Shown here piece after piece: positions 1 to 25,452 of a stretch of DNA of 25,452 nt. Below the pieces are notes generated by a model, which made no database searches, was not told the DNA's origin, and was given only the letters and a program-made list of their open reading frames with translations. The translations under genes and the position numbers were made by a program. Positions within the stretch are counted from its first letter, which is position 1; every line of letters begins with the position of its first letter. The DNA comes from a virus: IMG/VR virus record IMGVR_UViG_3300010271_000013. One strand, written 5' to 3'.

Positions 1-120
1 AGGGGAGGGTTGCATAACCAGTTTGCTCCTGAGACCCAAATACTTCCACCTTGCAGGGGAGGGTTGCATAACCAGTTTGCTCCTGAGACCCAAATACTTC
101 CACCTTGCAGGGGAGGGTTG
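1..120. repeat. Tandem direct repeats: two 54-bp units plus a partial third, identical to 25333..25452
   Basis: Seen directly: unit AGGGGAGGGTTGCATAACCAGTTTGCTCCTGAGACCCAAATACTTCCACCTTGC at 1..54 and 55..108, core restarts at 109. Bases 1..120 are identical to 25333..25452. Confidence 0.9.
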
Positions 121-122
121 CA

Positions 123-326
123 TCAGCCATCTTCACATCTTCCATTCAATTTTAGGCTTAAACTCAACTGGTTCTTCACTATAGAATATTCCAAGAGAAG
201 ACTCACATATTCACAGATCCTTTGCTCAAATGTGATCCCTTCATGGACCACCTTCACACCCTCGTGGGTGTAATACGCTGAGGCATGTTTCCTCGCGGTT
301 TTGAGCGATATTGGCATGCCACTCAC
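123..326 (-). CDS. hypothetical protein (67 aa)
   Basis: ORF directly abutting the 327..761 gene in the same minus-strand operon; stop codon at 123..125 at the repeat-array boundary. No recognisable motif. Confidence 0.3.
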   Translation of the reverse strand: MSGMPISLKTARKHASAYYTHEGVKVVHEGITFEQRICEYVSLLLEYSIVKNQLSLSLKLNGRCEDG

Positions 327-761
327 TCAGATGTAAGTATATGACACCCTTATCCCGAAGTTCACATTTCCTCCTGTTGCAGTGGAGGGGATCACAAGCT
401 TCAGCTTCAATGTATGCCCTTCACCTGATGCTATCGTTCCCAGTTCTTTCATCGTGTCCCCGCCAACACTTGTAAATTCAGTGTCCCCATTAGTCTCTGA
501 TTTTACATTCAGCCATTTATCCGCGACCACTTCTGACCCCTCCTCGGGGGTGCCCCCAGTGAGTTGGCCGGTTGCTGTCACGGTGGTGATCTGGACATTC
601 TCCATATCCGAAACGCCCTCTTCCTCATCCTTATTATTGTATATTATCAGGGTTATGACGGAGGATTCTTCCCCAGCATACCACCATCCAAAATCAAGGG
701 GGTTCTCAGCATTATACTGGTAGTTAAAGTTATCCCAGAATGTCACAATTGGTGCAGTCAT
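327..761 (-). CDS. hypothetical tail-module protein (144 aa)
   Basis: ORF downstream of the tape measure gene in the same orientation and tightly packed; function inferred from position only. Confidence 0.45.
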   Translation of the reverse strand: MTAPIVTFWDNFNYQYNAENPLDFGWWYAGEESSVITLIIYNNKDEEEGVSDMENVQITTVTATGQLTGGTPEEGSEVVADKWLNVKSETNGDTEFTSVGGDTMKELGTIASGEGHTLKLKLVIPSTATGGNVNFGIRVSYTYI

Positions 762-765
762 ACAT

Positions 766-1080
766 TCACACCTCCATACATTTTAGTTTCCATGAGTATT
801 TTCCAGGTTGTGAATTCATATCCGGGGCCCACCTCAAGTATATGACAGTGGCTCCCCACTCTTTTATCCTAACAATAAGATACTCCCTATACCGGGCCCC
901 ATCGTGACTCAGGAGAGTCCTGTTCTCCGGGCCCCCAGGGGCCTCCAGTTTCAGGTTCAGGGGTTTCGGTGAACGATTACGCAGCTTCAACATCCTCACA
1001 GGTCCCTCGCTGCCCGGACGCGTCTTCCCCATCCCCAACCGTAGCACGTCCCTGCCATAGGCATCCTCAAAGGTTATCAT
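766..1080 (-). CDS. hypothetical tail-module protein (104 aa)
   Basis: ORF whose start overlaps the stop of 1077..1418 by 4 nt (translational coupling). Confidence 0.45.
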   Translation of the reverse strand: MITFEDAYGRDVLRLGMGKTRPGSEGPVRMLKLRNRSPKPLNLKLEAPGGPENRTLLSHDGARYREYLIVRIKEWGATVIYLRWAPDMNSQPGKYSWKLKCMEV

Positions 1081-1418
1081 AGTTCCACCTCCACTTCAAG
1101 GGTGTACTCAAGGAGCTCCCCACTGAACTTGTCTATGACCCGCGTGACGTAGTGAAGAGCGCCTGTCCATGAATTTTCACCATCCGAAACATCAAGTAGT
1201 TCACCGCCCGCCACCTGGATGATGTTCCCCCCATTCACTAGTTTCGTGTTTGTGATCTGCTTGCTGGCGATCTCATTCCACGCGTCAACCTCAACCCATG
1301 GATCGTCATCCACATCCTCCCTTGAAACAGCACACTTCAGAGTGATCCGTCCATTCGCGTCAGGTCCCTCCACGCTGATTATATGGGATGGTTTCAGTCC
1401 TCCTATCGTCCATTCCAT
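1077..1418 (-). CDS. hypothetical tail-module protein (113 aa)
   Basis: ORF starting 2 nt after the tape measure stop, same strand. Confidence 0.45.
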   Translation of the reverse strand: MEWTIGGLKPSHIISVEGPDANGRITLKCAVSREDVDDDPWVEVDAWNEIASKQITNTKLVNGGNIIQVAGGELLDVSDGENSWTGALHYVTRVIDKFSGELLEYTLEVEVEL

Positions 1419-1419
1419 A

Positions 1420-4400
1420 TCATATCCTCCTCATGAGGCTTGTGCCACCTTTAAGGTACATCTGGGTTTGCAGTCCATTGTTCACTGTTTCAAGTATACT
1501 CTCCCCTATAGTGCGTCCTACTTCCCTGGCAGTTTCTTTATCCTCAACTCCGTTAATGTTCTCTATCCTGACCTCATTCTTCACAGTCATTTGGGGTGTG
1601 CTCTCCGCTGGGGGTGTGCCCTCAAGGCGGCTGGGGAGTGTGAAGCCCCCGAATAAGAGGCCTGATGAGTCTTTCAGTCCCGCGTTGAAGCTACCCCCGA
1701 GACTGTACCCGTACCCGTACATCACTTCATCCGTCAAGTCCTTGAGGGGGCCCTCCCTTGGCGGTGATCTTGGGAGGTATTTTCTGATGATCGCGAGGGC
1801 TTTCTGCAGTCCAGGGATCTGTGATAGTATACCCTGTGTGAGGTTCCGGATGAATGACGCCCCCCACTCCCTGAACTTGGAGGCTATGCCACTGAAATTA
1901 GGGAGAGGTAGGCGTGGCCACTTGAATCCTGAGAATGAAGACTTCACCTTGGAGGTGAATGTGGACCACGCCCTCCTGAATGCCCCGAGGATATCAGGCA
2001 TGGATACGTTGGGGAGTCTGGGCCACCTGAACCTGGGGATATTGGATGACACCCATGACCTGAATTTGGCCCAAGCGGATTGGATAGCTCCGACTATGTT
2101 GGGTATTGTGATGTTAGGTAGGCGTGGCCACCTGAATCGGGGTATATTGGATGATACCCATGACGTGAATTTGGCCCAAGCGGATTGGATAGCAGTCACA
2201 GGGTTAGGTATGCTGAGGCTGGGAAGTCTTGGCCATTTGAAAGTGGGAATATGTTCCTTAACCCATCCTGTGAATTTGTTCCACATCTCCTGCAGAGCCG
2301 TTACAGGATTAGGAAGAGGAAGTTTAGGTAGTTGTGGCCATTTAAATGTTGGTATGCGGGTCATGACCCACACTTTGAAGTCATTCCATACTTGCCCAAA
2401 GCCTTCGATGATGTACTTTCCGGGGTCCCTAAATAATTTTGAAAGTTCCTCACGGATAGGATCCTCAATGTAGGTCTTGATATTCTGCATCAGCGCTTCC
2501 TTTAGTTTGCTCCACTTTTCAGGGCCATAGATCCCCTCAAAAAGTTTTTCAGGGGAAAACATGTTTTTAATGGAATCAGGAAGTAATGAAAGAGGTGTCG
2601 GCCCGAATAAGGATGTTGGATCAGAGAGTGCTCTGTTTAGGTATTCCCTAAAGTTTGCGAGTATATCTACACTTAAAAGAGCGACACCAACTCCTTCACC
2701 GATACCCCTTATAAGCAAGGATCCTATACGGGAACCTAACTCTGGGATACTAACCCTTGCAGCGTCATCAACACTCCCTGTAAATCTCTCTAGGAGGGTC
2801 CTTGCAGCGTCATCAATCTGAGTATCCCCTATAGTTAAATCTATTTTGGGGAGTTTGAATTTGAATTCTGCAGGGATCTCAATTTTAGGTGTTAAACGGC
2901 CTGTCTCATCACCAAGGATCCTCTTAATCGTGTCAATAAACCCCTTAATGATATCCTTTGCTTTGCCCGCCGCCTTATCAAATCCTTCAGATAATGTATC
3001 TATGAGGCGGCGTGACAGTTCCTCAGGCAACCTTCCCTTCAATTCATCGAATCCGTCGGACAATAGCCTCCTGATAGCCCCAGTGACACGTGGGATGAGT
3101 CTCTTTAAGCCTTCGGCAAGGTACTCAGCGGCTTTTGCGAATACCCCAACAAGCAGTGATTCTCCGATTAGGCCCATGTCACCGAAAAAATCGTTCAACC
3201 ACATCGCGAACTGATCCAGATAGTACCTTATCCATCCTAATATATCCCTATGTTCTTTCGCTGATTTACCGAGCGCTTTGTTCATCCTCTCAGATTCCTC
3301 TTCAGTCACCTTACTCGTGGTTTTCCAGTTACTTGCCACCTGTGCCAGCGCTGGCCCCACTGATTCACCAAAAACCTCAGTGGCAACCCTAACACGTTCC
3401 TGCTGATCAGGAATCTGAGAAAGAACCTCTATAAAATCAAAAAGCACATCCTTGAATGGCCGCAGGTTTCCATGAGCGTCCCTCACAGCCACCCCAAATC
3501 CCTCGAGTTTATCACTGTACTTTTTTACGCTTTCCCCGCCTTCAACCCATGAACTTGATATCTCTGCTAGATCCCTAGCAAATGGCCTCAGAATCCGTGT
3601 GCCTATGGGGCCTACTGATGCAATTATCCTGGCTGTATCCTCCACATTCAAACCTGCTTGTTTGAAAAAATATCCAAGGCGATCAACGGTATCAATGAAC
3701 TGTGTGAATGATGGGTAACCTGAGACCCTCCATAACCCAAGGAGCAGGTTCACTGTATCTGTTGAGTCTTGTACACTGACATTGAAGTCCCTAAAGACCC
3801 TTGCAAGTGCAAGTGTCACTGTGGATGCATCCTCACCACTCCTTTTAACCCCAAGGAGGGCTGCTTTAAAGTATCCCATAGTCAGGTTCACATCATTGGT
3901 GTAGGCTGCAAGTGTGTACATCACTGACGCTGTTCCCTTCATCCCTAGTGAGTAGACATAGTTTTCACGGATTAGATCCTCCATGGCTTCTCTCTGACTT
4001 TGAGTTGCATTTGTGAGGATTGCTGACTGCTCAATTATCTTATTATAATTCAAGAGCTCAAGTGTTTTATTATATGAGAAGAATCCCGCCGTTAAGCCAG
4101 CGACTTTTGAGGTTAAACCATCAACAGCTCCGGTGAATGTGTTTGTTGTCTCAGCAGCTGTTTCCATTGATTCTGTATCCACCGTGATCGTAGTGTCATA
4201 TGTTGTCCCATCAATCTCCTCAAGTTTTTCTTTGAAGTTTTCAATGTTTTCCTCGTTAACATCCGCGTTCAGTGTAGTTGTGACCTCATCAGGGATATCA
4301 CCTAGAAGTCCCTGTAGTCTCTCAACTATTTCTGTAGCGTTGTCATCAACATTTAATGAGATATCCACAGTGGATGGGAGCTCACTAAGAAGTTCTTTCA

Positions 4401-4800
4401 GGTTTGTGATTGGTTCTGTAGCGTTATCATCAACATTCAATGTTATGTTAAATTCATCAGAGAGTCTCTCCTTCAAAGAATCAAGCACATCAGATGCATT
4501 ATCCTCCGCGGTGAGGGTTACATTCACTTCTGATGGTAAACCATCCACAAGGTCCTTAATATTTGTGATGGTCTCTGTGGCAAAGTCATCGAATGCAGAA
4601 ATTGTGATTTCAACATCTGAGGGTAAAGTTTCAAGAGAATCCTGGATTGTCTCAAGTATTGGGGTGACAGTATCCTCTGTGGTGATATCTACTTCGACTG
4701 ATCCTGGCAGGTTGGACAGTGCATTGTTTAAATCGTTTAAACCGTTCACCACTTCCTCGGCATCCATTCTGACTTGCACGGCAAGTTCATGATCAGTCAT
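1420..4800 (-). CDS. tail tape measure protein (1126 aa)
   Basis: Longest ORF in the window, in the tail module. Five C-terminal 35-aa repeats with W/F at fixed spacing ([87 protein letters not shown] and others) and N-terminal ~28-aa repeats, as is typical of tape measure proteins. GGAGG Shine-Dalgarno-like motif about 9 nt upstream of the ATG on the minus strand. Confidence 0.75.
1830..2370. repeat. In-frame ~105-bp tandem repeats (5 copies) inside the tape measure gene; coordinates approximate
   Basis: Near-identical DNA blocks around 2020..2090 and 2125..2195 (GGCCACCTGAA...CCCATGAC.TGAATTTGGCCCAAGCGGATTGGATAGC), matching the 35-aa protein repeats. Confidence 0.7.
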
Positions 4801-4843: not shown

Positions 4844-5557
4844 GTGAAAAATAGTATTGGGGTGTTTGTGTTGAAGCTTCAATGTAAAGAATGCGGCAGG
4901 GAGTACACATTACAGGATGATGAAGACCCCATGGATTACACATGCGAATGCGGGGGGAACCTAGAGAAAGACGAAGATCTAAGTGTATTAAAAGGCAGCA
5001 TATACCTTGCATTTATGTGGTTAGCGGCAGCTACAAATGGGGGTATCCAGGGGTTAGGGCTTCTTCTAATAGAATTGATATTATTCATTTTGCCAGCTAT
5101 AATCATATCAGCCATAATTCTCCGCGAAAAAAACCCTAAAGAATTACTTGGCATTGAGGGCATCCTATTCATCATATTAGGCATAATCGTCATCCATGAC
5201 CCTAAAAGCCTGATCTATGGTGCCTTCGGTATATTAGGATTACTAGCAGGGGTGGTCCTAACCATTGAAGGAGTGCTTGGCACTATTAAAGGAGATTCTG
5301 ATAAAGAAGGGCCCAGGGAAGTAGAAGGAGGTTTCCATGTCCTCCACGCAACAGCTATCCTCCTAGGAAGTTACATTGCATTACTTCTGATCAACCCCAC
5401 TGCAAGTGAAAGTGAGGGTATCATGGCCCTCACTATCATGTTCCTAGTTCCAATCCTCACTGCACTAAGCATAATCTACAGGAAAGATAACCCTAAACCT
5501 CTTAGATCAGTCCAATTAATAACCGCTATGATCATCTTATTCGTCCTCATCATTTAA
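4844..5557 (+). CDS. multi-pass membrane protein with N-terminal CxxC...CxC zinc-ribbon-like motif (237 aa); true start may be an internal GTG or TTG
   Basis: Only long ORF in the 4801..5536 gap and on the opposite strand to its neighbours. N-terminus CKECGREYT...YTCECGG, followed by about six hydrophobic helix-length segments separated by charged loops. Overlapping minus-strand ORFs translate to low-complexity sequence. Confidence 0.5.
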
Positions 5558-6287: not shown

Positions 6288-7022
6288 TTAAACTTTTGGT
6301 ATTACTAGTGTTGGTGTGTCTGAAACGGTCATCTCAAGGGTGAATGACAGGTTATCCCCGGCTTTCCCTCCGGGTATGTCAGGTTTCAGTTTCACATTTT
6401 CAAAGTAGAACCGTCCCAGTGTCTCCCCATCCACGTGGTATACGGTGTACCCGTATAGGTTGAGGGGTTTGTCACGGAGTTTATACTGCTCGGCCCCTGT
6501 GGTCTCACCCACCTTGTAGTACATTAGTTTTCTGAACTGCTCCAAACCATTCTTGGAGAGTATCTGCTCAGATTTTAGGGTGATTGTGGTGCCAGCGTAG
6601 CTTGTTATCTTCGCCGACTCATTTAATACGCTGACCTCCTTCGTGTCCTGCTTCACATCAGGGGTCACATCCTGGGCAAGGAATGGTTCCATCTCCTCCA
6701 CATATGATACTTTCACACTATCCCCTGTGTCTGGTGCTGATGCGAGACTGAAACCCTCAGCATAGCCTTCAGATTCATTGAATAGGATTGTTGAGACTGT
6801 TGCTGCTTCCCCATCAACTGTTACTGTGACATCTTCTGGTTTCACTGTCAGGTCATTACAGCTCCTGGGGAATATCGGCGGATTATTCACATAAAAATCC
6901 TTATTCGTCCCGTCTATATCCCCTATTGGGGTTTCCTCCTGCACAGGTATCCCAAGGAAGAACCCAACATTCTCCCCTGTCAGTATAGTTTCTGCTAGTT
7001 TATCCACAATCATATCCATCAC
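6288..7022 (-). CDS. putative major tail protein (244 aa)
   Basis: Position immediately upstream of the chaperone gene in the conserved siphovirus order; size appropriate. No motif recognised. Confidence 0.35.
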   Translation of the reverse strand: MMDMIVDKLAETILTGENVGFFLGIPVQEETPIGDIDGTNKDFYVNNPPIFPRSCNDLTVKPEDVTVTVDGEAATVSTILFNESEGYAEGFSLASAPDTGDSVKVSYVEEMEPFLAQDVTPDVKQDTKEVSVLNESAKITSYAGTTITLKSEQILSKNGLEQFRKLMYYKVGETTGAEQYKLRDKPLNLYGYTVYHVDGETLGRFYFENVKLKPDIPGGKAGDNLSFTLEMTVSDTPTLVIPKV

Positions 7023-16372: not shown

Positions 16373-16699
16373 AAATAAAAAAAGCAGAGACTATAAAACT
16401 TTTCACAGCGAAATCAACATGGTGAATAAAGGTATCCGCATCATATTTTAAAGTACTCTTTTGCTTACCATATCTCTTTTCTACAAAATATAATTTGCTG
16501 TTTTATATTATTACGAAGCCCTCTATTTTAATGTATGTACAAAGAAAAAAAGATGTATGTACATCCGCGAATGTATCCCCAGGGAGTCTTGTACAGTCGA
16601 CTGTACATGCCCTGTACAGCTGTATGTACATGATGTGCTGGGGGTACTCTCGTCAATGTATGTACAAAGAGAAAAAGATGTATGTACAAATAGATAAAT
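16373..16699. promoter_or_regulatory. AT-rich intergenic control region with clustered TGTACA palindromes (candidate operator and promoter, or origin)
   Basis: About 330 bp without a credible ORF, lying between the regulatory gene block and the structural genes. Eight TGTACA hexamers and an 18-bp perfect palindrome. Confidence 0.55.
16530..16688. repeat. 34-bp direct repeat pair bracketing a palindrome cluster
   Basis: AATGTATGTACAAAGAAAAAAAGATGTATGTACA at 16530..16563 and AATGTATGTACAAAGAGAAAAAGATGTATGTACA at 16655..16688 (one mismatch). Between them the perfect palindrome TGTACAGTCGACTGTACA (16590..16607) and further TGTACA sites at 16613..16618 and 16625..16630. Confidence 0.9.
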
Positions 16700-19196: not shown

Positions 19197-19454
19197 TCAC
19201 ACCCCCTTTAAGAGTTTTTTAAGCATTTCCAGCTTCCCATAAGGACTGAGTCTGAAGTATTCAGTGGGGACATTCACACCCGCCTCTCTTAGATGCTCCA
19301 GGCCCGCTTCTGCCCATGCATCCATCCTTATACGTGAAGTTTTCCTCTCAGCTATCCTCGCAGCTAACCTGGCGAGTGATAGATGGTCTCGGGGTGTCCT
19401 GGAGAACATCTCAAGGTCATGGTATTCATCCACTAATCCCATAACATCAACCAC
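19197..19454 (-). CDS. hypothetical protein (85 aa)
   Basis: ORF in the operon; no motif recognised. Confidence 0.4.
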   Translation of the reverse strand: MVDVMGLVDEYHDLEMFSRTPRDHLSLARLAARIAERKTSRIRMDAWAEAGLEHLREAGVNVPTEYFRLSPYGKLEMLKKLLKGV

Positions 19455-19571
19455 CTACAATCCAAATGTGTGGTATGGTGCAACTTCGAGTGTCTTCATA
19501 AATCCCATGAAAATAAAAAAGAGGAGGATTAGGAGGATGAGGATCACAGCCCTCATGTTCAGATCGGACAT
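19455..19571 (-). CDS. small hydrophobic protein (38 aa), below the ORF-track size cut-off
   Basis: Read by hand: MSDLNMRAVILILLILLFFIFMGFMKTLEVAPYHTFGL. Its ATG overlaps the upstream stop (TGATG) and its stop abuts the next gene. Confidence 0.3.
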   Translation of the reverse strand: MSDLNMRAVILILLILLFFIFMGFMKTLEVAPYHTFGL

Positions 19572-19705
19572 CACTCATCCCCCTCCTGCAGGTCAATCTG
19601 AAGCCATCTGATTAAATCTTCGACGGTTTTCCTGTAGCGGTTAATGTCGTCGATGTCCCTTGTTATTAGGAGGCGGTTGTAAAGTTCCTTTTTGGTTAAT
19701 GGCAT
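19571..19705 (-). CDS. small protein (44 aa), below the ORF-track size cut-off
   Basis: Read by hand: MPLTKKELYNRLLITRDIDDINRYRKTVEDLIRWLQIDLQEGDE. Fills the gap between 19709..20191 and the downstream genes. Confidence 0.3.
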   Translation of the reverse strand: MPLTKKELYNRLLITRDIDDINRYRKTVEDLIRWLQIDLQEGDE

Positions 19706-19708
19706 CAT

Positions 19709-20191
19709 TTATTCCACCTCCATTTCTCCGTAAATTATTGACCTGTAGAGTGCATTGTAGTCCTTGATTGTCTCATCATCCTCTGAGGTGATTATGTCAA
19801 GGTAGGCGAGGTAAACAATGTCTTCATCGATGATTACGTCCCCCTCTCCCTGGTGTTCCCTGAGTGCTCTGATCCATGCGAGGCTGCCTGCTGAGTGTAG
19901 AAGATCAGCTGCGAGATGTTCAAGTATTTTTCTGAATTCACGGATTGCTTCGCTGGTTAAATGGGCCTTGTTAGGGTTTCTGATACCCATGAAGTTGTCA
20001 TGTACTTGGTCTTCAAGGGCTTCTACGGGTGTTAGTATTTTCACCCGGATGCCGTCATGGTCCAGGTAGTCCTGGTATGTTTCTTCTATCTCTTCGGGGT
20101 AGCCCTTTTCAAGGGCTTCCTTGTACTTTCTCCAGGCTTCAAGCCTACTACCAAGAACAATATCTCGTGTTTTCATCTTACCACCACACAT
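19709..20191 (-). CDS. hypothetical protein (160 aa); start may be the internal ATG at 20174..20176
   Basis: First gene of the long minus-strand regulatory operon. Its start region lies inside one copy of the 24-bp direct repeat. Confidence 0.45.
   Translation of the reverse strand: MCGGKMKTRDIVLGSRLEAWRKYKEALEKGYPEEIEETYQDYLDHDGIRVKILTPVEALEDQVHDNFMGIRNPNKAHLTSEAIREFRKILEHLAADLLHSAGSLAWIRALREHQGEGDVIIDEDIVYLAYLDIITSEDDETIKDYNALYRSIIYGEMEVE
20167..20190. repeat. 24-bp direct repeat, copy 1 (GTGTTTTCATCTTACCACCACACA)
   Basis: Exact match to 20496..20519. Confidence 0.9.
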
Positions 20192-20290
20192 AATTTTATA
20201 GATAATATAGTATATATATTTTTTGGTATATTGGTGTAGTGGTTAAATATTATAAATATTTTTAAGCTATGCTCCGAAAAAATAGAAACC

Positions 20291-20464
20291 ATGAAAAGTG
20301 AAAAGGTCAACACAAGTGTCAATATCGATGCAAAAAAGTTCAAACTCTTCAAAGTCATCGCAATGCTAAAATTCGAGAAAACGCCAATTACCTCCGCATG
20401 GGAAGAAGCTATTGATTTGTTTATCGAAAAAAATAAAGAATATCTTGACGAAATTAAAGAATAG
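20291..20464 (+). CDS. small ribbon-helix-helix-like protein (57 aa), below the ORF-track size cut-off
   Basis: Read by hand: MKSEKVNTSVNIDAKKFKLFKVIAMLKFEKTPITSAWEEAIDLFIEKNKEYLDEIKE. Lies in a markedly AT-rich segment flanked by the 24-bp repeats, on the opposite strand to its neighbours. Confidence 0.4.
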   Translation: MKSEKVNTSVNIDAKKFKLFKVIAMLKFEKTPITSAWEEAIDLFIEKNKEYLDEIKE

Positions 20465-20495
20465 AGCAGTGAAACTCTTTCTTCTGCCCCCCTCG

Positions 20496-20519
20496 GTGTT
20501 TTCATCTTACCACCACACA
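20496..20519. repeat. 24-bp direct repeat, copy 2 (GTGTTTTCATCTTACCACCACACA)
   Basis: Exact match to 20167..20190. Confidence 0.9.
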
Positions 20520-20570
20520 CTAAAGGGGGGCACCTATATATAACACTACCATTAATACCTATCACATAGC

Positions 20571-20670
20571 ATCCCCCTAAGGGATGCGCATCCCCAGGGG
20601 GCCATTAGGGGATGTCACTTGGTGGGCGCCAAAAGAACTTCCTTCTAAAACCCCCTGGGGACCCCACCCT
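20571..20670. other. GC-rich palindromic non-coding segment downstream of the integrase gene; candidate attachment site
   Basis: Perfect 14-bp palindrome GGGATGCGCATCCC (20581..20594); inverted pair CCCCAGGGG (20592..20600) and CCCCTGGGG (20652..20660). Functional assignment is inference. Confidence 0.25.
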
Positions 20671-20742
20671 ATGAAAGGTTAATAAGAAAAGAATAAATAA
20701 TACCTTTAACCTTAGAGAGCCCCTGAAAACTAATCACAATCA

Positions 20743-21936
20743 TTATCTCATTCTCTTCAAAAACTCAGGATCTGAAACAATAATATTATAGATTTTCTCC
20801 GTTTTCTTCACCCACTCCCTCAACTTCTCCTGAGACTCACGCAACTCCTTAATCTCCCTCTCCTTAGCCTCCAACTCCCGCACAATCTCCCGCACCTCAT
20901 CAGACATAACACGACGCACACGTGACCTCTCCAACGTAAGAGCATGCATCCTCTTCCTATACTCCCTCTCCATGTGCCCAATATTCGCCTTGAAGTAAGC
21001 CTCAGTAACAGGATGAACCTTATGGCCAAGGCACCAATCAATCATGAGTTTATCCATCCCCTCCCTGTAGAGGATGCTCGTGAAAAGCTTCCTTAACTTA
21101 TGAGATGTGAAGCGTCGTGATCCATCATCACAGACGCCTAAACCTAGAGTGTCATTGATCCTTATGAATATCTTAACATAATAGTTCTGTGATAATCGTT
21201 TACCCTGCCAGGTTGCGAATAAGGGATCCTCTGGGCCTCCAAGGAAACCTTTCATTCGCCGATGTTTCAGGTACTCAAGGATCTTCAGGTTGGCCTCGGG
21301 GGTGGTGAAGGTCACATAGGGCATCCCCGTCTTCACGCGTCTAATCCTCCAGACACCCACAATCTCCTCATCCTGGATCTTCCTCCGCACTTCATCATAT
21401 TCAGCTCCCAGGACGCGGACTCCGAGGGCCTCCTCGTAGTCATTTATTGTGAGGCTTCTTACCTCAGCGCCTCCCATTCCACTGCTAACCTGTAGGAGGA
21501 TTATTGCCTTTTCGCGTGAGGGGACGTTGTCCACGACGTATTTTACTTCATCGAGTGATATAATGTCCTCCATTGACCCATTCATCGCCCTACTCTTGTA
21601 GGTGATCCGTGGCGGGTCTATCTCGTATTCATTGTACAGGGATTTTATCCTGGCGAGGTATATGTTGATTGTTGATGGTTTAACTCCTTTTTCTTCAAGG
21701 TATTGGATGTACTGGAGGAAGTATGTCCTGATGCTACGTTTTCTTCTCCGAACGCCACGGTCCTGTTCTTCTTCGGCTTCTTCTATGAGTTCTGTGAGCG
21801 TATTTTTACCCGTGGCTTTGAGGTAGTGTTTCAATGCTCCTTTGTATGTTTCTATCGTTCTTTTTTTTATGTTATGTGACAGGATAAAGTCCTGGAATAG
21901 TGGGTCTGTCTCGGGGAGTGGTTTTTTGGTGGGCAT
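20743..21936 (-). CDS. int: tyrosine recombinase / integrase (397 aa)
   Basis: N-terminal core-binding-like region, and a C-terminal catalytic region with HKLRKLF (H-x-x-R) and LGHKVHPVTEAYF (His and nucleophile Tyr). T-rich run after the stop on the transcribed strand. Confidence 0.8.
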   Translation of the reverse strand: MPTKKPLPETDPLFQDFILSHNIKKRTIETYKGALKHYLKATGKNTLTELIEEAEEEQDRGVRRRKRSIRTYFLQYIQYLEEKGVKPSTINIYLARIKSLYNEYEIDPPRITYKSRAMNGSMEDIISLDEVKYVVDNVPSREKAIILLQVSSGMGGAEVRSLTINDYEEALGVRVLGAEYDEVRRKIQDEEIVGVWRIRRVKTGMPYVTFTTPEANLKILEYLKHRRMKGFLGGPEDPLFATWQGKRLSQNYYVKIFIRINDTLGLGVCDDGSRRFTSHKLRKLFTSILYREGMDKLMIDWCLGHKVHPVTEAYFKANIGHMEREYRKRMHALTLERSRVRRVMSDEVREIVRELEAKEREIKELRESQEKLREWVKKTEKIYNIIVSDPEFLKRMR

Positions 21937-22161
21937 GAATAATTTCTATGGGTGCATTGTCCATAAATGTGGACTTTTATCTGAACTTTCTCATCTTAAA
22001 GGTTGATATTTTTGTCCCTATTTCCGCCACATTTGACATACAAAGCACCCATCAATGTAATACATGAACTTTTATCGACAATGCCAACCAACAATCAATT
22101 ACACATGTTCCTGCCACCTGCAAACAAACAAACGCAAACTACTTTTTCTTTTATTCCTTTT

Positions 22162-23043
22162 TTAATCTGATGTGATCACACCCCAACCAATGTGCTGGAA
22201 CCCTGCTGTGCAACATGGCACCCCCAGGGGCCTCCCCGTCTTCGTAGCGGAGACATAATCCCATATCGTCCCATCCTTGAGCTCAAACCCGCCAACTCTC
22301 AGGAGGTAGTGGCCGTACCATTTCCCGTCGTTACACTTCACCCGAACATGTTCGATTTTCACCTCGTAGCCCATCTCTTCGAGGACCTTGCTGAAGAGTT
22401 GGCAGGCGTCGGTGCAATTGATCCCCTCATCAGTCATCCTCCTCACCGCATCGTCATCACTATATTTGTCATTATAGTAGTATTTGTAGTTGCATTTTCT
22501 TGCGACCGCACCATACAGTGTCGTTGCATCCACGAAGTCCCCTATCTTCTTCAGGACTCTCTTTGTCCACTCACCCTCCAGTCGCGGTCTCTCTATGTAT
22601 ACCACCTGGGGTTCCCTTCCATACCTGTCCTTGAAATTGTTGTATCGTCTCACCATGTCCCTGAATGTTTCGAGTGGGATGGATTCCCCTCCCCCTGAGC
22701 GGATGAATATGACGCGGGGTTCCCTCTTGTTCTTCATTTTGAAGTCCTCATACCTCTTCAACATGTCCTTGAACGTTTCGAGGGGTACTGATTCCCCTCC
22801 CCCTGAGCGGATGAATATGACGCGGGGTTCCCTCTTGTTCTTCATTTTGAAGTCCTCATATCTCTTGCACATGTCTTTGAAGGTTTCTAACGATACGCTT
22901 GGGCCCCCACCTGAGTAGATGAACACTACCCTGGGTTCTCTCCCATTAACCTCCTTGAAGCGGTTGTACCTGCTTAACATGTCTTTAAATTGGGTTATGG
23001 ATACATACTCTGGAGTGTTCTTATTAATCATGTCCACCTCCAA
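22162..23043 (-). CDS. pei: pseudomurein endoisopeptidase-like lysin (293 aa): tandem wall-binding repeats plus Cys/His/Asp peptidase domain
   Basis: Three near-identical ~36-aa repeats (EPRVVFIYSGGGPSVSLETFKDMCKRYEDFKMKNKR, EPRVIFIRSGGGESVPLETFKDMLKRYEDFKMKNKR, EPRVIFIRSGGGESIPLETFRDMVRRYNNFKDRYGR). C-terminal domain has candidate triad Cys in INCTDACQLF, His in GHYLLRV, Asp in DGTIWD, the order used by transglutaminase-like Pei enzymes. Confidence 0.6.
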   Translation of the reverse strand: MEVDMINKNTPEYVSITQFKDMLSRYNRFKEVNGREPRVVFIYSGGGPSVSLETFKDMCKRYEDFKMKNKREPRVIFIRSGGGESVPLETFKDMLKRYEDFKMKNKREPRVIFIRSGGGESIPLETFRDMVRRYNNFKDRYGREPQVVYIERPRLEGEWTKRVLKKIGDFVDATTLYGAVARKCNYKYYYNDKYSDDDAVRRMTDEGINCTDACQLFSKVLEEMGYEVKIEHVRVKCNDGKWYGHYLLRVGGFELKDGTIWDYVSATKTGRPLGVPCCTAGFQHIGWGVITSD

Positions 23044-23055
23044 AAATTAGATTCA

Positions 23056-23688
23056 TTAAACTCCTCCACTACTCCCACAAGTAAATCCAAGCGTCCCACA
23101 CTTGATATATTCTTCTCCACCGAATACCTTCACCCTTACCTTGTACTCCACATCCCTATCTAGTGACCCCCAGAAGTTGTATATTACTAGGGACAAGGGG
23201 ATGGTGCCGGAGCCTAGGAACCATACCCCATAAACCTCATCATTAATTTCAGTAATCACCCCTGACCCTGCGAAGTCCTCATCTCCAGTGTATTCATTCA
23301 GGAAATGGGTCAGAGAAAGTTGCCCATCACCATCCTCTGGGATCATAACCCTAAATTCACCTGCCACTATTTCCTCACCAGGATAGGATGCCGGCCGATT
23401 CACACCATTGAAGAAGATGAAGCTATCATCCCCCCTCAGACACCTGTCATCCACGACCCCACAACCATCACACAAACAAGAGGGGCCATGCGCAACACCT
23501 CCACCATCACGTAGAGGTGAAACAAACACACGATCCCCCACCTTAAAACTTGACCTTCCACGTGCAATATCCTGCCCACGTGAGGGGTGGACAGCCACCT
23601 GACCCCCTACATTGAACTTCCCAGGACCCACACCACCATCACCCCCATCACTGATCCTCCTCAACATGAACCTGTCCCCAGGCTTCAA
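23056..23688 (-). CDS. Gly/Cys-rich hypothetical protein, possible tail fibre or spike (210 aa)
   Basis: ORF between the 447-aa tail-associated protein and the lysin; Gly-rich and Cys-rich segments. Confidence 0.4.
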   Translation of the reverse strand: MKPGDRFMLRRISDGGDGGVGPGKFNVGGQVAVHPSRGQDIARGRSSFKVGDRVFVSPLRDGGGVAHGPSCLCDGCGVVDDRCLRGDDSFIFFNGVNRPASYPGEEIVAGEFRVMIPEDGDGQLSLTHFLNEYTGDEDFAGSGVITEINDEVYGVWFLGSGTIPLSLVIYNFWGSLDRDVEYKVRVKVFGGEEYIKCGTLGFTCGSSGGV

Positions 23689-23691
23689 CCA

Positions 23692-25035
23692 TCACACCCC
23701 CTTCACAGGTTTCCCATAATTACCATAGAGTTGGCTGTAGACTGAGACAAGGACTGTACTGGTCCTTTCATTCACATCTGAGACTGTATGGATACTGCTC
23801 AGTTTCTGTTGTGACTCTATCATGTTCAGGACCGTCTCGGCGAGGTTCTTGTTCGATTCAACATCAGGGTTGTCACTAAAATCAACCCTAGTCCTGCGGC
23901 CGCCATTATCCCCCTCCCATGACACGTTCGTCACAGTGAACACCTTATCTCCTGTCTCATAGGGGAACCTTATGGATTCCCCTGGATGGAATGTTTGCAA
24001 GCCTGGCACCTCAAAACTCCCGGTTGTAATGGGGTCCTTGGTCTTCCTCAGGGCTTCCTCCAGTTTCCTCATGAGCTCATTTATACATTCCTTCATCCAT
24101 TCTTCTTCTCTTGGCTGATCTGAATACAGTCCTCCGCGGGGGCCGCCCCAACGGTACAGCCATGCCATGAAGTCCTCAGGACTCCCTTTATGTCCATGAT
24201 TCAACCAGTCCAAGTAGACCATGTACCCATGCATGTAATTCATCATATCCGCGTATCTTTTCACTTCACTAGGGGAGGGTGGTGTCTCCTCTTTATCATT
24301 TTCAGTGGGGGGTGGGTTGCAGGTGACGGTGATCCTCTCCCCAACCCTGAGACCATACTTTTCTATGCTTGCAGCATCACTCACCGAACGTGTGACTTCA
24401 CCATTGGGTCCTGTAGCACCCTCATAGTAGTTGTACACCCCTTCACTTGACTCCCTGATCTCAATGTTAATCATGTTCTCCACGGGCAGGTCGGTCACAT
24501 CCCCCTTACTGAACACTCTGAAAGTACCATATGGGTCTATATACCACCCCACATTCGCATCCTGATCATTCGCAACAGTGAAGAGCGTGTTAAGTGCTTC
24601 TACCTTACTCCTGAATTCCCCTCCATAAAAATAAGGGTCAAGGGCATTATTAGAGAACTGCACCTGGGGTATGCTCTCTGATGCGCCTATAATTATCTTG
24701 GTGTCCCTCAGGATGTTCTCAATGATCTCCCTCATGGGGAACACTCTACCCCCGCGGAGAACAGCACCAAATGCAAAGGGTTGTCTGGATAGGAGGAATG
24801 CATCATTATATCCGCCAATTGTGTATTGAAGACCATTTGCTGAGCGTGTCATGGTCACCGTCTCAGCGCGGCCAGTGAACACTTCATTATCCCTAACGAG
24901 GAACTGGATCTTATCCCCTGTCTTAAATTCTTTTTTCTCTCGTGGCCTTATTGTGACAGTGAATGATGTAGCTGCATCGTTCAGTCTTTGCTGGATATTG
25001 AAACTCACAAGTCCCTTTTCAGGCATATTCCACAT
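23692..25035 (-). CDS. putative tail-associated / baseplate protein (447 aa)
   Basis: Large ORF continuing the tail module across the window junction; no motif recognised. Confidence 0.45.
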   Translation of the reverse strand: MWNMPEKGLVSFNIQQRLNDAATSFTVTIRPREKKEFKTGDKIQFLVRDNEVFTGRAETVTMTRSANGLQYTIGGYNDAFLLSRQPFAFGAVLRGGRVFPMREIIENILRDTKIIIGASESIPQVQFSNNALDPYFYGGEFRSKVEALNTLFTVANDQDANVGWYIDPYGTFRVFSKGDVTDLPVENMINIEIRESSEGVYNYYEGATGPNGEVTRSVSDAASIEKYGLRVGERITVTCNPPPTENDKEETPPSPSEVKRYADMMNYMHGYMVYLDWLNHGHKGSPEDFMAWLYRWGGPRGGLYSDQPREEEWMKECINELMRKLEEALRKTKDPITTGSFEVPGLQTFHPGESIRFPYETGDKVFTVTNVSWEGDNGGRRTRVDFSDNPDVESNKNLAETVLNMIESQQKLSSIHTVSDVNERTSTVLVSVYSQLYGNYGKPVKGV

Positions 25036-25452
25036 CCCTGATTTTTACCTTGAGTTCACCATCATCCCTAATATCTTGAATGATCTCGCCTTCAAGGGTG
25101 AGATCATATTCAACCATCTCCCCTGTGTCAACCCGCACGTAGCAGGGGATGTATCTCATGGATGTGCTCTCATCAACCATCACCCCTACCCTGATGGGGA
25201 GTGTTGTGTGTAGGGATTTCCGTTCAGGACGCCTAACTTTTAGCGTGCAGGGGAGGGTTGCTTCCCTAAATCCTGTTATACCTACTCTGCAGGGGAGGGT
25301 TGCTTCCCTAAATCCTGTTATACCTACTCTGCAGGGGAGGGTTGCATAACCAGTTTGCTCCTGAGACCCAAATACTTCCACCTTGCAGGGGAGGGTTGCA
25401 TAACCAGTTTGCTCCTGAGACCCAAATACTTCCACCTTGCAGGGGAGGGTTG
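25019..25452 (-). CDS. repeat-containing small protein whose 5' part is encoded by the tandem array; on a closed circle it would start at ATG 143..145 (about 152 aa); could instead be a short ORF starting at ATG 25178..25180
   Basis: Minus-strand frame is open through every repeat unit (54 bp = 18 codons, 42 bp = 14 codons), giving ATLPCKVEVFGSQEQTGY and ATLPCRVGITGFRE repeats. The same frame crosses the junction to MEDVKMAD starting at 143..145, with a stop just upstream at 146..148. Confidence 0.3.
   Translation of the reverse strand, partial: TLPCKVEVFGSQEQTGYATLPCKVEVFGSQEQTGYATLPCRVGITGFREATLPCRVGITGFREATLPCTLKVRRPERKSLHTTLPIRVGVMVDESTSMRYIPCYVRVDTGEMVEYDLTLEGEIIQDIRDDGELKVKIRDVEYA
25247..25452. 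repeat. Composite tandem array: 2 x 42-bp units, then 2 x 54-bp units, then partial core; continues at 1..120
   Basis: Units at 25247..25288 and 25289..25330 (42 bp), 25331..25384 and 25385..25438 (54 bp), each starting with the core GCAGGGGAGGGTTG. Copies of each unit type are nucleotide-identical. Confidence 0.9.

Follow-up and report, generated by a model that had tools for sequence, protein, structure and literature searches.

In the immI region of phages P1 and P7, as described in PMC12197685 with reference to Citron & Schuster 1990, the c4 RNA displays, in what are thought to be loops, short stretches complementary to the ribosome-binding site (RBS) region of an mRNA needed for lytic growth, and differences between these complementary sequences make the two phages heteroimmune. 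The small antisense RNA sar of phage P22 pairs with the start region of the ant mRNA, blocks initiation of translation and helps to establish lysogeny (PMC12197685). In the temperate head-tailed archaeal virus phiH of Halobacterium, the early lytic transcript is under antisense-RNA control (Stolt & Zillig 1993, cited in PMC6210493). Here we describe a locus in a stretch of viral DNA of 25,452 nucleotides (IMG/VR record IMGVR_UViG_3300010271_000013; the whole stretch is hereafter called the window) from a relative of the Methanothermobacter viruses psiM2 and psiM100. A 24-bp direct repeat in the window links the start region of an early gene, homologous to ORF31 of these viruses, with the loop of a predicted hairpin that follows a small, divergently oriented gene (Table 1). 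We propose that the small-gene transcript could serve as a trans-acting antisense lock on translation of the early gene, analogous to c4 RNA and existing in three specificity groups, and we give this reading a probability of roughly 0.45.

The locus resembles c4 in its predicted loop display of sequences complementary to the Shine-Dalgarno (SD) sequence and the start codon, and in the concerted, lineage-specific replacement of these sequences together with their target. It differs in having no homology to c4 and no Rfam match, in its archaeal host, and in that the lock proposed for the window is a prediction from sequence. The c4 RNA is processed from the same transcript as its target, and its complementarity derives from inverted repeats, whereas in the window regulator and target lie on opposite strands, the complementarity takes the form of a direct repeat, and the element stands 3' of a protein-coding gene. 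In contrast to the window, where the complementary segment is a displaced copy at a distance of 329 bp, sar is transcribed in true cis-antisense from the ant start region. The RNA of phiH is a counter-transcript that overlaps its target; neither a loop-displayed trans copy nor lineage-specific pairs have been reported for it, and phiH also differs from the window virus in family and host. The homologous locus is the 'ORF30' region of psiM2 and psiM100 (AF065411 and AF301375), which lies between int and the ORF31 and ORF1 genes and has the same hairpin and repeat architecture as the window, with different repeat sequences.

The 24-mer GTGTTTTCATCTTACCACCACACA occurs exactly twice on the plus strand, with start positions 329 bp apart, as the initial annotation had reported. 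No third copy was found at up to five mismatches, and the 24-mer had no match in 100 dinucleotide-preserving shuffles. Also borne out is the statement that the repeat duplicates the start region of a gene of 160 amino acids (aa), since copy 1 takes in, from the minus-strand ORF31-like gene, an SD-like GGTGGT (20185-20180), the start codon ATG (20176-20174) and 2.3 further codons. Read from this start, the protein has 155 aa; an in-frame ATG farther upstream would extend it to 160 aa. Independent gene calls use the ATG in copy 1. Copy 2 is located in the hairpin, whose 17-nt open loop holds an anti-start (CAU) and an anti-SD (ACCACC) above an inner stem (GGUGU/ACACU) and an outer stem (UGCCCCCCU/AGGGGGGCA). 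Because the repeat is direct and the two genes are on opposite strands, a small-gene transcript that includes the hairpin would be complementary to the ORF31 mRNA at its RBS.

This arrangement recurs in related loci (referred to by L numbers where they need to be told apart) with other sequences in the same places. Written as on the window plus strand, the repeat is ATGTCTGATCAACTCC in psiM100, L019 and L020 (16/16 positions matching between copies, spacing 338 bp) and GTCGCCGCCT in psiM2 and L021 (10/10, 330 bp), while copy 1 is TTTTAGGTCGCCACCT in L026 (15/16, 344 bp) and TTTGGTCACCACCT in L028 (13/14, 332 bp); the window type matches at 24/24. The sequences are unrelated between groups yet occupy the same two positions: relative to the small ORF, copy 1 lies between -100 and -135 of the ATG and copy 2 between +23 and +55 of the stop. 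In the complete psiM2 and psiM100 genomes the repeat cores have no occurrences beyond these two. In every lineage with the pair, copy 1 overlaps the SD of the ORF31-like gene, sometimes together with the start codon, and the loop of a GC-rich hairpin holds copy 2. Hairpins of -16 to -26 kcal/mol are predicted in five lineages (window, psiM100, psiM2, L026 and L028), 10-21 nt past the small-gene stop. A direct comparison of their C-runs and G-runs shows that the two vary in length together, C6/G6 being the state of the window, psiM100 and L028 and C5/G5 that of psiM2 and L026; the stems are kept and the loops replaced.

The repeats and the hairpin are also more conserved than their surroundings. 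Between L003 and the window, 15 of 100 intergenic positions and 9 of 174 positions in the ORF have changed, as against none of 72 in copy 1 plus hairpin (Fisher p = 2e-4); the hairpin alone contributes 0/48 differences. Copy 1 is unchanged in the diverged L003, L034 and L047-49, where the adjoining intergenic DNA differs by 12-15%, and loci whose ORF31-like protein is only 60-77% identical keep both exact 24-mers as well as the hairpin. Two of the three differences between copies, those of L028 and the recombinant L033, retain pairing as a wobble, the mRNA having U where the loop has G. A G-to-A change at 20495 in L047 converts a G.U pair to A-U on the plus strand, and one C/T change between psiM2 and L026 is concerted.

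Predicted duplexes between loop and start region are strong within groups, reaching -45.9 kcal/mol for the window, -32.0 for psiM100, -26.6 for psiM2, -33.6 for L026 and -26.5 for L028, and only -12 to -20 kcal/mol between groups. Against shuffled targets, the cognate duplexes have z-scores of -9.6 to -3.2, with that of the window (-43 to -46 kcal/mol) at z -9.6. The psiM2, L026 and L028 elements cross-react and thus form one group, so that there are three specificity groups in all. A search for further groups through ORF31 homologs, in the viral collection and by protein search, returned only more window-type loci, and in the distant L022 and L024 a search for the repeat architecture gave nothing above chance. 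A contig of 1271 nt from Logan SRR9855029 (L030) encodes a hybrid small protein with a psiM100-type N-terminus and a window-type C-terminus; its copy 1 is of the psiM100 type, while its copy 2 is window-like but diverging (GTGTTTTCATCTTA and then different). Either natural recombination has produced a mismatched pair here, or the assembly is chimeric.

The enclosed DNA is AT-richer than its surroundings, as first described, with a GC content of 0.30-0.37 at 20100-20500 and 0.44-0.49 on either side. The idea that it is an inserted or recombinationally exchanged module holds only in part. In a three-way alignment, psiM2 and psiM100 have homologous DNA, about 70% identical, between the two copies; all relatives have this segment, and no empty sites were found, on which grounds insertion with target-site duplication was rejected. 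The unit does, however, move intact through mosaic backgrounds. Relatives with a single copy and no cassette were not found, and the predicted deletion junction ATCTCGTGTTTTCATCTTACCACCACACACTAAAGG has no match in the viral collection. Of the outcome that the initial annotation gave as a refutation of its reading, only half is seen: relatives do have the arrangement in common, but their two copies have changed together instead of diverging from each other, and the ORF shows conservation. A relationship to attachment (att) sites was likewise rejected, as the repeat bears no relation to the att core of psiM100, TTTATTATTAAAAATTT, and the pair persists in the integrase-less L003 and L028; the att core does not occur within the window.

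Single-copy relatives do exist in L034-L036, from biogas metagenomes, and in L031 and L032, which have lost the hairpin and copy 2 but have an intact copy 1 and keep the gene. In L034 an ACCAAT-AAAT-GTTGGT stem and a run of seven T directly follow the stop codon, and in L003 the hairpin is nested inside the same stem. These loci could be immunity-defective or escape variants. The contig of L003 (NZ_JBNASF010000047.1), from a metagenome-assembled genome (MAG), has the first base of copy 1 as its own position 1, which suggests that the assembly graph broke at the repeat or that strains differ at this junction.

Several properties expected of an antisense repressor are found together here: complementarity to the SD and start codon (24/24 in the window, 10-16 nt elsewhere), predicted display of the complementary sequence in a loop, and covariation of regulator and target. 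In the antisense reading, the small gene would be transcribed through the hairpin, the loop of which would pair in trans with the SD, start codon and first codons of the ORF31-like mRNA. Pairing would block ribosome binding and possibly trigger cleavage. The first early gene would then be kept silent while the small gene is expressed, for example in a lysogen, and an incoming phage of the same type would be silenced likewise. As only the match would matter and not the sequence itself, lineages could have drifted to three non-cognate pairs, which would amount to heteroimmunity groups. The small protein would act separately, probably on 8-bp tandem repeats between the divergent promoters.

A number of observations weigh against such a lock. 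The GC stem folds equally well on either strand, which makes the strand assignment weak. A run of five T precedes the loop on its 5' side on the plus strand in L026 and L028, and the window loop itself contains a run of four; oligo-T tracts are archaeal termination signals, and the RNA could end before the anti-SD. The psiM2 pair spans only 10-11 bp, which 7 of 200 shuffles reach in an unrestricted search, and consists partly of generic SD sequence. Minus-strand transcription may begin within copy 2, driven by the conserved TATATATA box next to the hairpin, which suggests a different reading. Because hairpin-less variants exist (L034-36 and L031/32) and the distant L022 and L024 lack the pair, the pair is dispensable and restricted to a clade. 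The L030 contig combines copies of two types, albeit in a possibly chimeric 1.3-kb assembly, and the independent specificity groups number only three.

The repeats may instead be paired sites for a lineage-specific protein, an unlikely explanation but one with several points in its favor. The sites could be DNA operators at the transcription start regions of two minus-strand promoters, that of ORF31 and that provided by the TATATATA box; alternatively, a translational repressor could bind them as RNA in two transcripts of the same sense. The obvious candidate would be the small protein. Archaeal repressors commonly bind over the transcription start, and a TATA-like box precedes each copy by 15-31 bp in the window and psiM100, although in psiM2 and L026 the box is 50-60 nt from copy 2, so the geometry is not general. 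The N-terminus of the small protein is its most variable part and differs by repeat group, as expected if the ribbon of a ribbon-helix-helix (RHH) protein read DNA there; physical linkage would, however, explain this covariation as well. Identities of 24/24 and 16/16 far exceed what protein recognition needs, and no dyad, tandem or other sub-repeat symmetry is common to the three repeat sequences. The tandem 8-16-bp repeats between the divergent promoters are better operator candidates, and protein sites would leave the conserved GC stem around copy 2 without a role. We regard as improbable a duplicated 5' leader and start, in which the TATATATA promoter would make a minus-strand RNA from copy 2 whose first ~24 nt equal those of the ORF31 mRNA, giving both RNAs the same initiation or stability properties. 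This RNA would be translated as ORF30, or act as a long antisense transcript across the small gene through interference between convergent promoters. The predicted transcription start, about 24 nt past the TATA box, would fall in or at copy 2 in the window and psiM100; an in-frame ATG in window copy 2 opens a 110-codon antisense frame, a TTG after copy 2 in psiM100 is the annotated ORF30 start, and the antisense frame is open in all lineages. The start and end of ORF30 are not conserved, though, and in the psiM2 group no start follows copy 2. Its pN/pS (the ratio of nonsynonymous to synonymous polymorphism) of 0.47 is worse than the 0.31 of the sense frame, a signal explained as a wobble by-product, and gene callers on independent contigs choose the small plus-strand ORF. 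A real ORF30 gene with a duplicated start was accordingly rejected as a general explanation, on the basis of its frame ends and pN/pS.

Two further explanations assign the repeats no regulatory pairing. Slightly less probable than the duplicated leader is that they have no function of their own and are a by-product of module shuffling, such as a patch copied in illegitimate recombination, with their conservation in the window type reflecting recent spread of one cassette. The locus is indeed a mosaic hot spot, with a drop in identity near 20566, an integrase module ending about 11 bp past the hairpin, and the recombinants L030 and L033. It is nevertheless hard to see how three unrelated sequences would be duplicated by accident at the same two functional positions in three lineages, or why 0/72 positions would change when 15/100 did so in neighboring non-coding DNA. 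Least probable of those considered, and in our view very unlikely, is that the repeats serve as a deletion substrate, in line with the excision considered in the initial annotation: recombination between them would remove the small gene and both promoters and fuse ORF31 to the TATATATA promoter, yielding a virulent derivative. Under this model, too, the copies should be identical in any one genome but free to vary from genome to genome, the deletion would leave ORF31 with a working start region, and the L003 contig edge at copy 1 has the form of an assembly-graph break. Repeats of 10-16 bp are, however, poor recombination substrates, no deleted form was found and the junction had no hit in the viral collection, and the small gene is present in all contexts shown for the 22 contigs that encode the exact ORF31-like protein. 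Single-copy relatives have lost the hairpin and not the gene, the repeats are unrelated to the att core and persist in integrase-less lineages, and the hairpin and the SD position would go unexplained.

The small gene is conserved in all relatives, with 14 homologs of its product in public data, and is the lone gene divergent from the early operon at every locus examined; its divergent orientation and the nearby integrase agree with the initial description. The protein is 57-62 aa long among relatives and 82 aa in the most distant. psiM2 (59 aa) and psiM100 (58 aa) encode the same protein, 67-71% identical to that of the window and with matching ends, opposite the annotated ORF30. Their GenBank records give ORF30 (124 and 100 aa, respectively) on the int strand and leave the small gene, hairpin and repeats unannotated. 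In the frame of the small ORF, 53 of 56 third codon positions are variable, with 32 and 24 variable at positions 1 and 2. The ORF30 frame shares wobble positions with the small ORF, and this accounts for its intermediate pN/pS. Though open in all lineages, the frame has no start codon upstream of the overlap in L031 and one only just inside the overlap in L028, it is cut by a 1-bp indel in L003, and its C-terminal tails are translated promoter DNA. Based on pN/pS, the wobble pattern and the lack of conserved ORF30 ends, we consider the small plus-strand ORF to be a real gene and ORF30 a shadow ORF. The 'transmembrane regions' predicted for ORF30 are expected from the antisense of a Lys/Glu-rich ORF.

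The small ORF thus stands as a conserved gene, but its description as RHH-like is not demonstrated. The protein matched no Pfam family at E<=1 and nothing significant in PHROGs, and a profile search of the PDB gave a best E of 0.2, to an unrelated chain. An AlphaFold2 monomer, with a mean predicted local distance difference test (pLDDT) score of 71, shows an extended segment at residues 1-13 and two or three helices, with helical stretches at 14-28 and 34-56. Foldseek searches with this monomer gave nothing significant; the best E values were ~8-10, and one of these hits was the RHH protein ParB (3no7). The model topology is possibly compatible with RHH. Like the repressors Arc, Mnt and CopG, the protein is small, has a predicted extended N-terminus followed by two helices, and is encoded divergently from an early operon with short tandem repeats in the promoter region; it differs from them in having no profile or significant structural match.

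Between the divergent promoters, the 8-bp tandem repeats TTGGTATA/TTGGTGTA/GTGGTTAA occupy 20223-20246. Equivalent repeats are found in the other groups, with TTGGTATA present two to three times in the window type, TTTTGGTATRTTGTTA twice in psiM100, and TCTTTAT-like units in the psiM2 group. They differ by lineage together with the N-terminus of the small protein, and are probably this protein's own operators. The TATATATA box is conserved in the window, psiM100 and L028 and is shifted by 50-60 nt in psiM2 and L026. It is probably a promoter for minus-strand transcription, which would run antisense to the small gene and in the direction of ORF31; this orientation is suggested by the run of seven T that follows on the plus strand in the integrase-less L003 and L028. 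Covariance models of Rfam 15 gave no match at E<=1 on either strand of 19400-22300.

Table 1. Coordinates of the features of the repeat locus and adjoining genes (window positions unless stated otherwise)
Feature	Position	Strand	Description
ORF31-like gene	19709-20176	-	155 aa; first gene of the divergent early operon; PHROG 37053
Repeat copy 1	20167-20190	-	Reads TGTGTGGTGGTAAGATGAAAACAC: predicted 5' leader, SD, ATG and first codons of the ORF31-like gene
ORF30 frame	20173-20565; psiM2 (L001) 25079-25453; psiM100 (L002) 3002-3304	- (window)	130 aa in the window
AT-rich divergent promoter region	20191-20290		TATA-like boxes facing both ways; putative promoter and operator roles, from archaeal promoter architecture
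Small gene	20291-20464	+	57 aa; apparently the only plus-strand gene; conserved in all relatives
GC-clamped hairpin	20485-20532	+	21 nt past the small-gene stop; predicted minimum free energy -22.2 kcal/mol, z -3.0
Repeat copy 2	20496-20519	+	Within the hairpin; plus-strand RNA complementary over 24 nt to the initiation region at copy 1
Palindromic TATATATA box	20535-20542		3 nt past the hairpin
Tyrosine integrase	20743-21936	-	Pfam Phage_integrase, E 2.7e-12; homolog of psiM2 ORF29
Pei endoisopeptidase	22162-23043	-	Peptidase_C71 plus four PMBR repeats

It is conceivable, though we hold it with clear reservations, that the psiM2/psiM100 family carries an RNA-based, re-programmable heteroimmunity determinant, in which the 3' hairpin of the lysogeny-side small gene acts in trans on the RBS of the first early gene and new types arise by copying a new start region into the loop. 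Its specificity would then be the first sequence-programmable antisense one described for immunity in an archaeal virus, and a direct repeat spanning divergent transcription units would encode an antisense regulator that acts in trans. The phage family, its integrase and the general idea of antisense immunity RNAs are already known, while the small gene, the hairpin and the concerted pairing of loop and start site appear to be undescribed. Among the papers listed in literature searches, none dealt with the regulation of these phages, nor with the choice between lysis and lysogeny or superinfection immunity in methanogen viruses. psiM2 and psiM100 are classical models, yet the central gene of this locus is unannotated in them, and the ORF30 annotation is corrected here. 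The three predicted immunity types can be read straight from biogas and hot-spring metagenome sequence, and the hairpin, if the lock is real, would provide a programmable translational repressor module for Methanothermobacter, where genetic tools are few.

The window belongs to a psiM2/psiM100-like Methanothermobacter siphovirus (Leisingerviridae, Psimunavirus), as seen from 82-98% nucleotide identity to psiM2 and psiM100 across most of its length and from a gene order that is the same with the window in reverse orientation. On the minus strand the order is the Pei gene, the integrase gene (ORF29), the 'ORF30' slot, the ORF31-like gene and an ORF1-like gene. The 22 contigs include free-phage forms of about 25.5 kb, in which the Pei gene adjoins int, and integrated forms on contigs of up to 281 kb, in which int adjoins a host gene; the Methanothermobacter marburgensis assembly GCA_041928885.1 holds a related prophage, and M. 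wolfeii with psiM100 represents the second repeat type. As both free and integrated forms are found, the phage is temperate, and the initial suggestion of a lysogeny or immunity switch is plausible. The host gene beside the integrated forms differs, with a 397-aa integrase variant (L038/L039) next to an adenosine-kinase-family gene and a 402-aa variant in M. marburgensis (L047) adjoining a CBS-domain gene, which suggests that the two integrase variants use different attachment sites.

The unit formed by the hairpin, small gene, divergent promoters and ORF31 start appears to be a conserved module within a mosaic genome. The mosaicism is evident because identity to psiM2 falls from about 100% to about 70% near 20566 in an alignment of the window with psiM2 and psiM100, because the integrase module (about 20544-22210) is absent from L003 and L028 although hairpin and repeat pair persist there, and because L030 and L033 are recombinants. 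In the four loci without the integrase module (L003, L028, L029 and L034) the sequence jumps from about 11 bp past the hairpin (window 20543) to the Pei region (22211), followed by a run of seven T, and the small gene is retained.

Between the hairpin and the integrase stop, window positions 20545-20700 form a GC-rich and strongly structured stretch that contains GCATCCCC..GGGATGC and an 11-bp CCCCAGGGGG../..CCCCCTGGGG stem. Its predicted folding exceeds that of shuffled sequences on either strand (z -3.4 and -3.2), and it is ~100% identical to psiM2 where its flanks are ~70% identical; it has no Rfam match. The stretch might terminate integrase transcription, be a site related to recombination, or encode a non-coding RNA. 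A plus-strand ORF at 4844-5557 was considered as a second plus-strand gene, but it has no family match and overlaps the ORF20 homolog, and is probably a shadow ORF. Positions 16526-16688 match the 125-bp tandem-repeat unit of psiM100, which is present there in three copies (6594-6968) beside the IFa insertion. The two ends of the window (1-1860 and 23028-25452) have no nucleotide match to psiM2 or psiM100 and hold putative tail and adsorption genes, namely 23056-25035 and the distal part of a tail-protein ORF at 1420-4800, consistent with swapped host-recognition modules.

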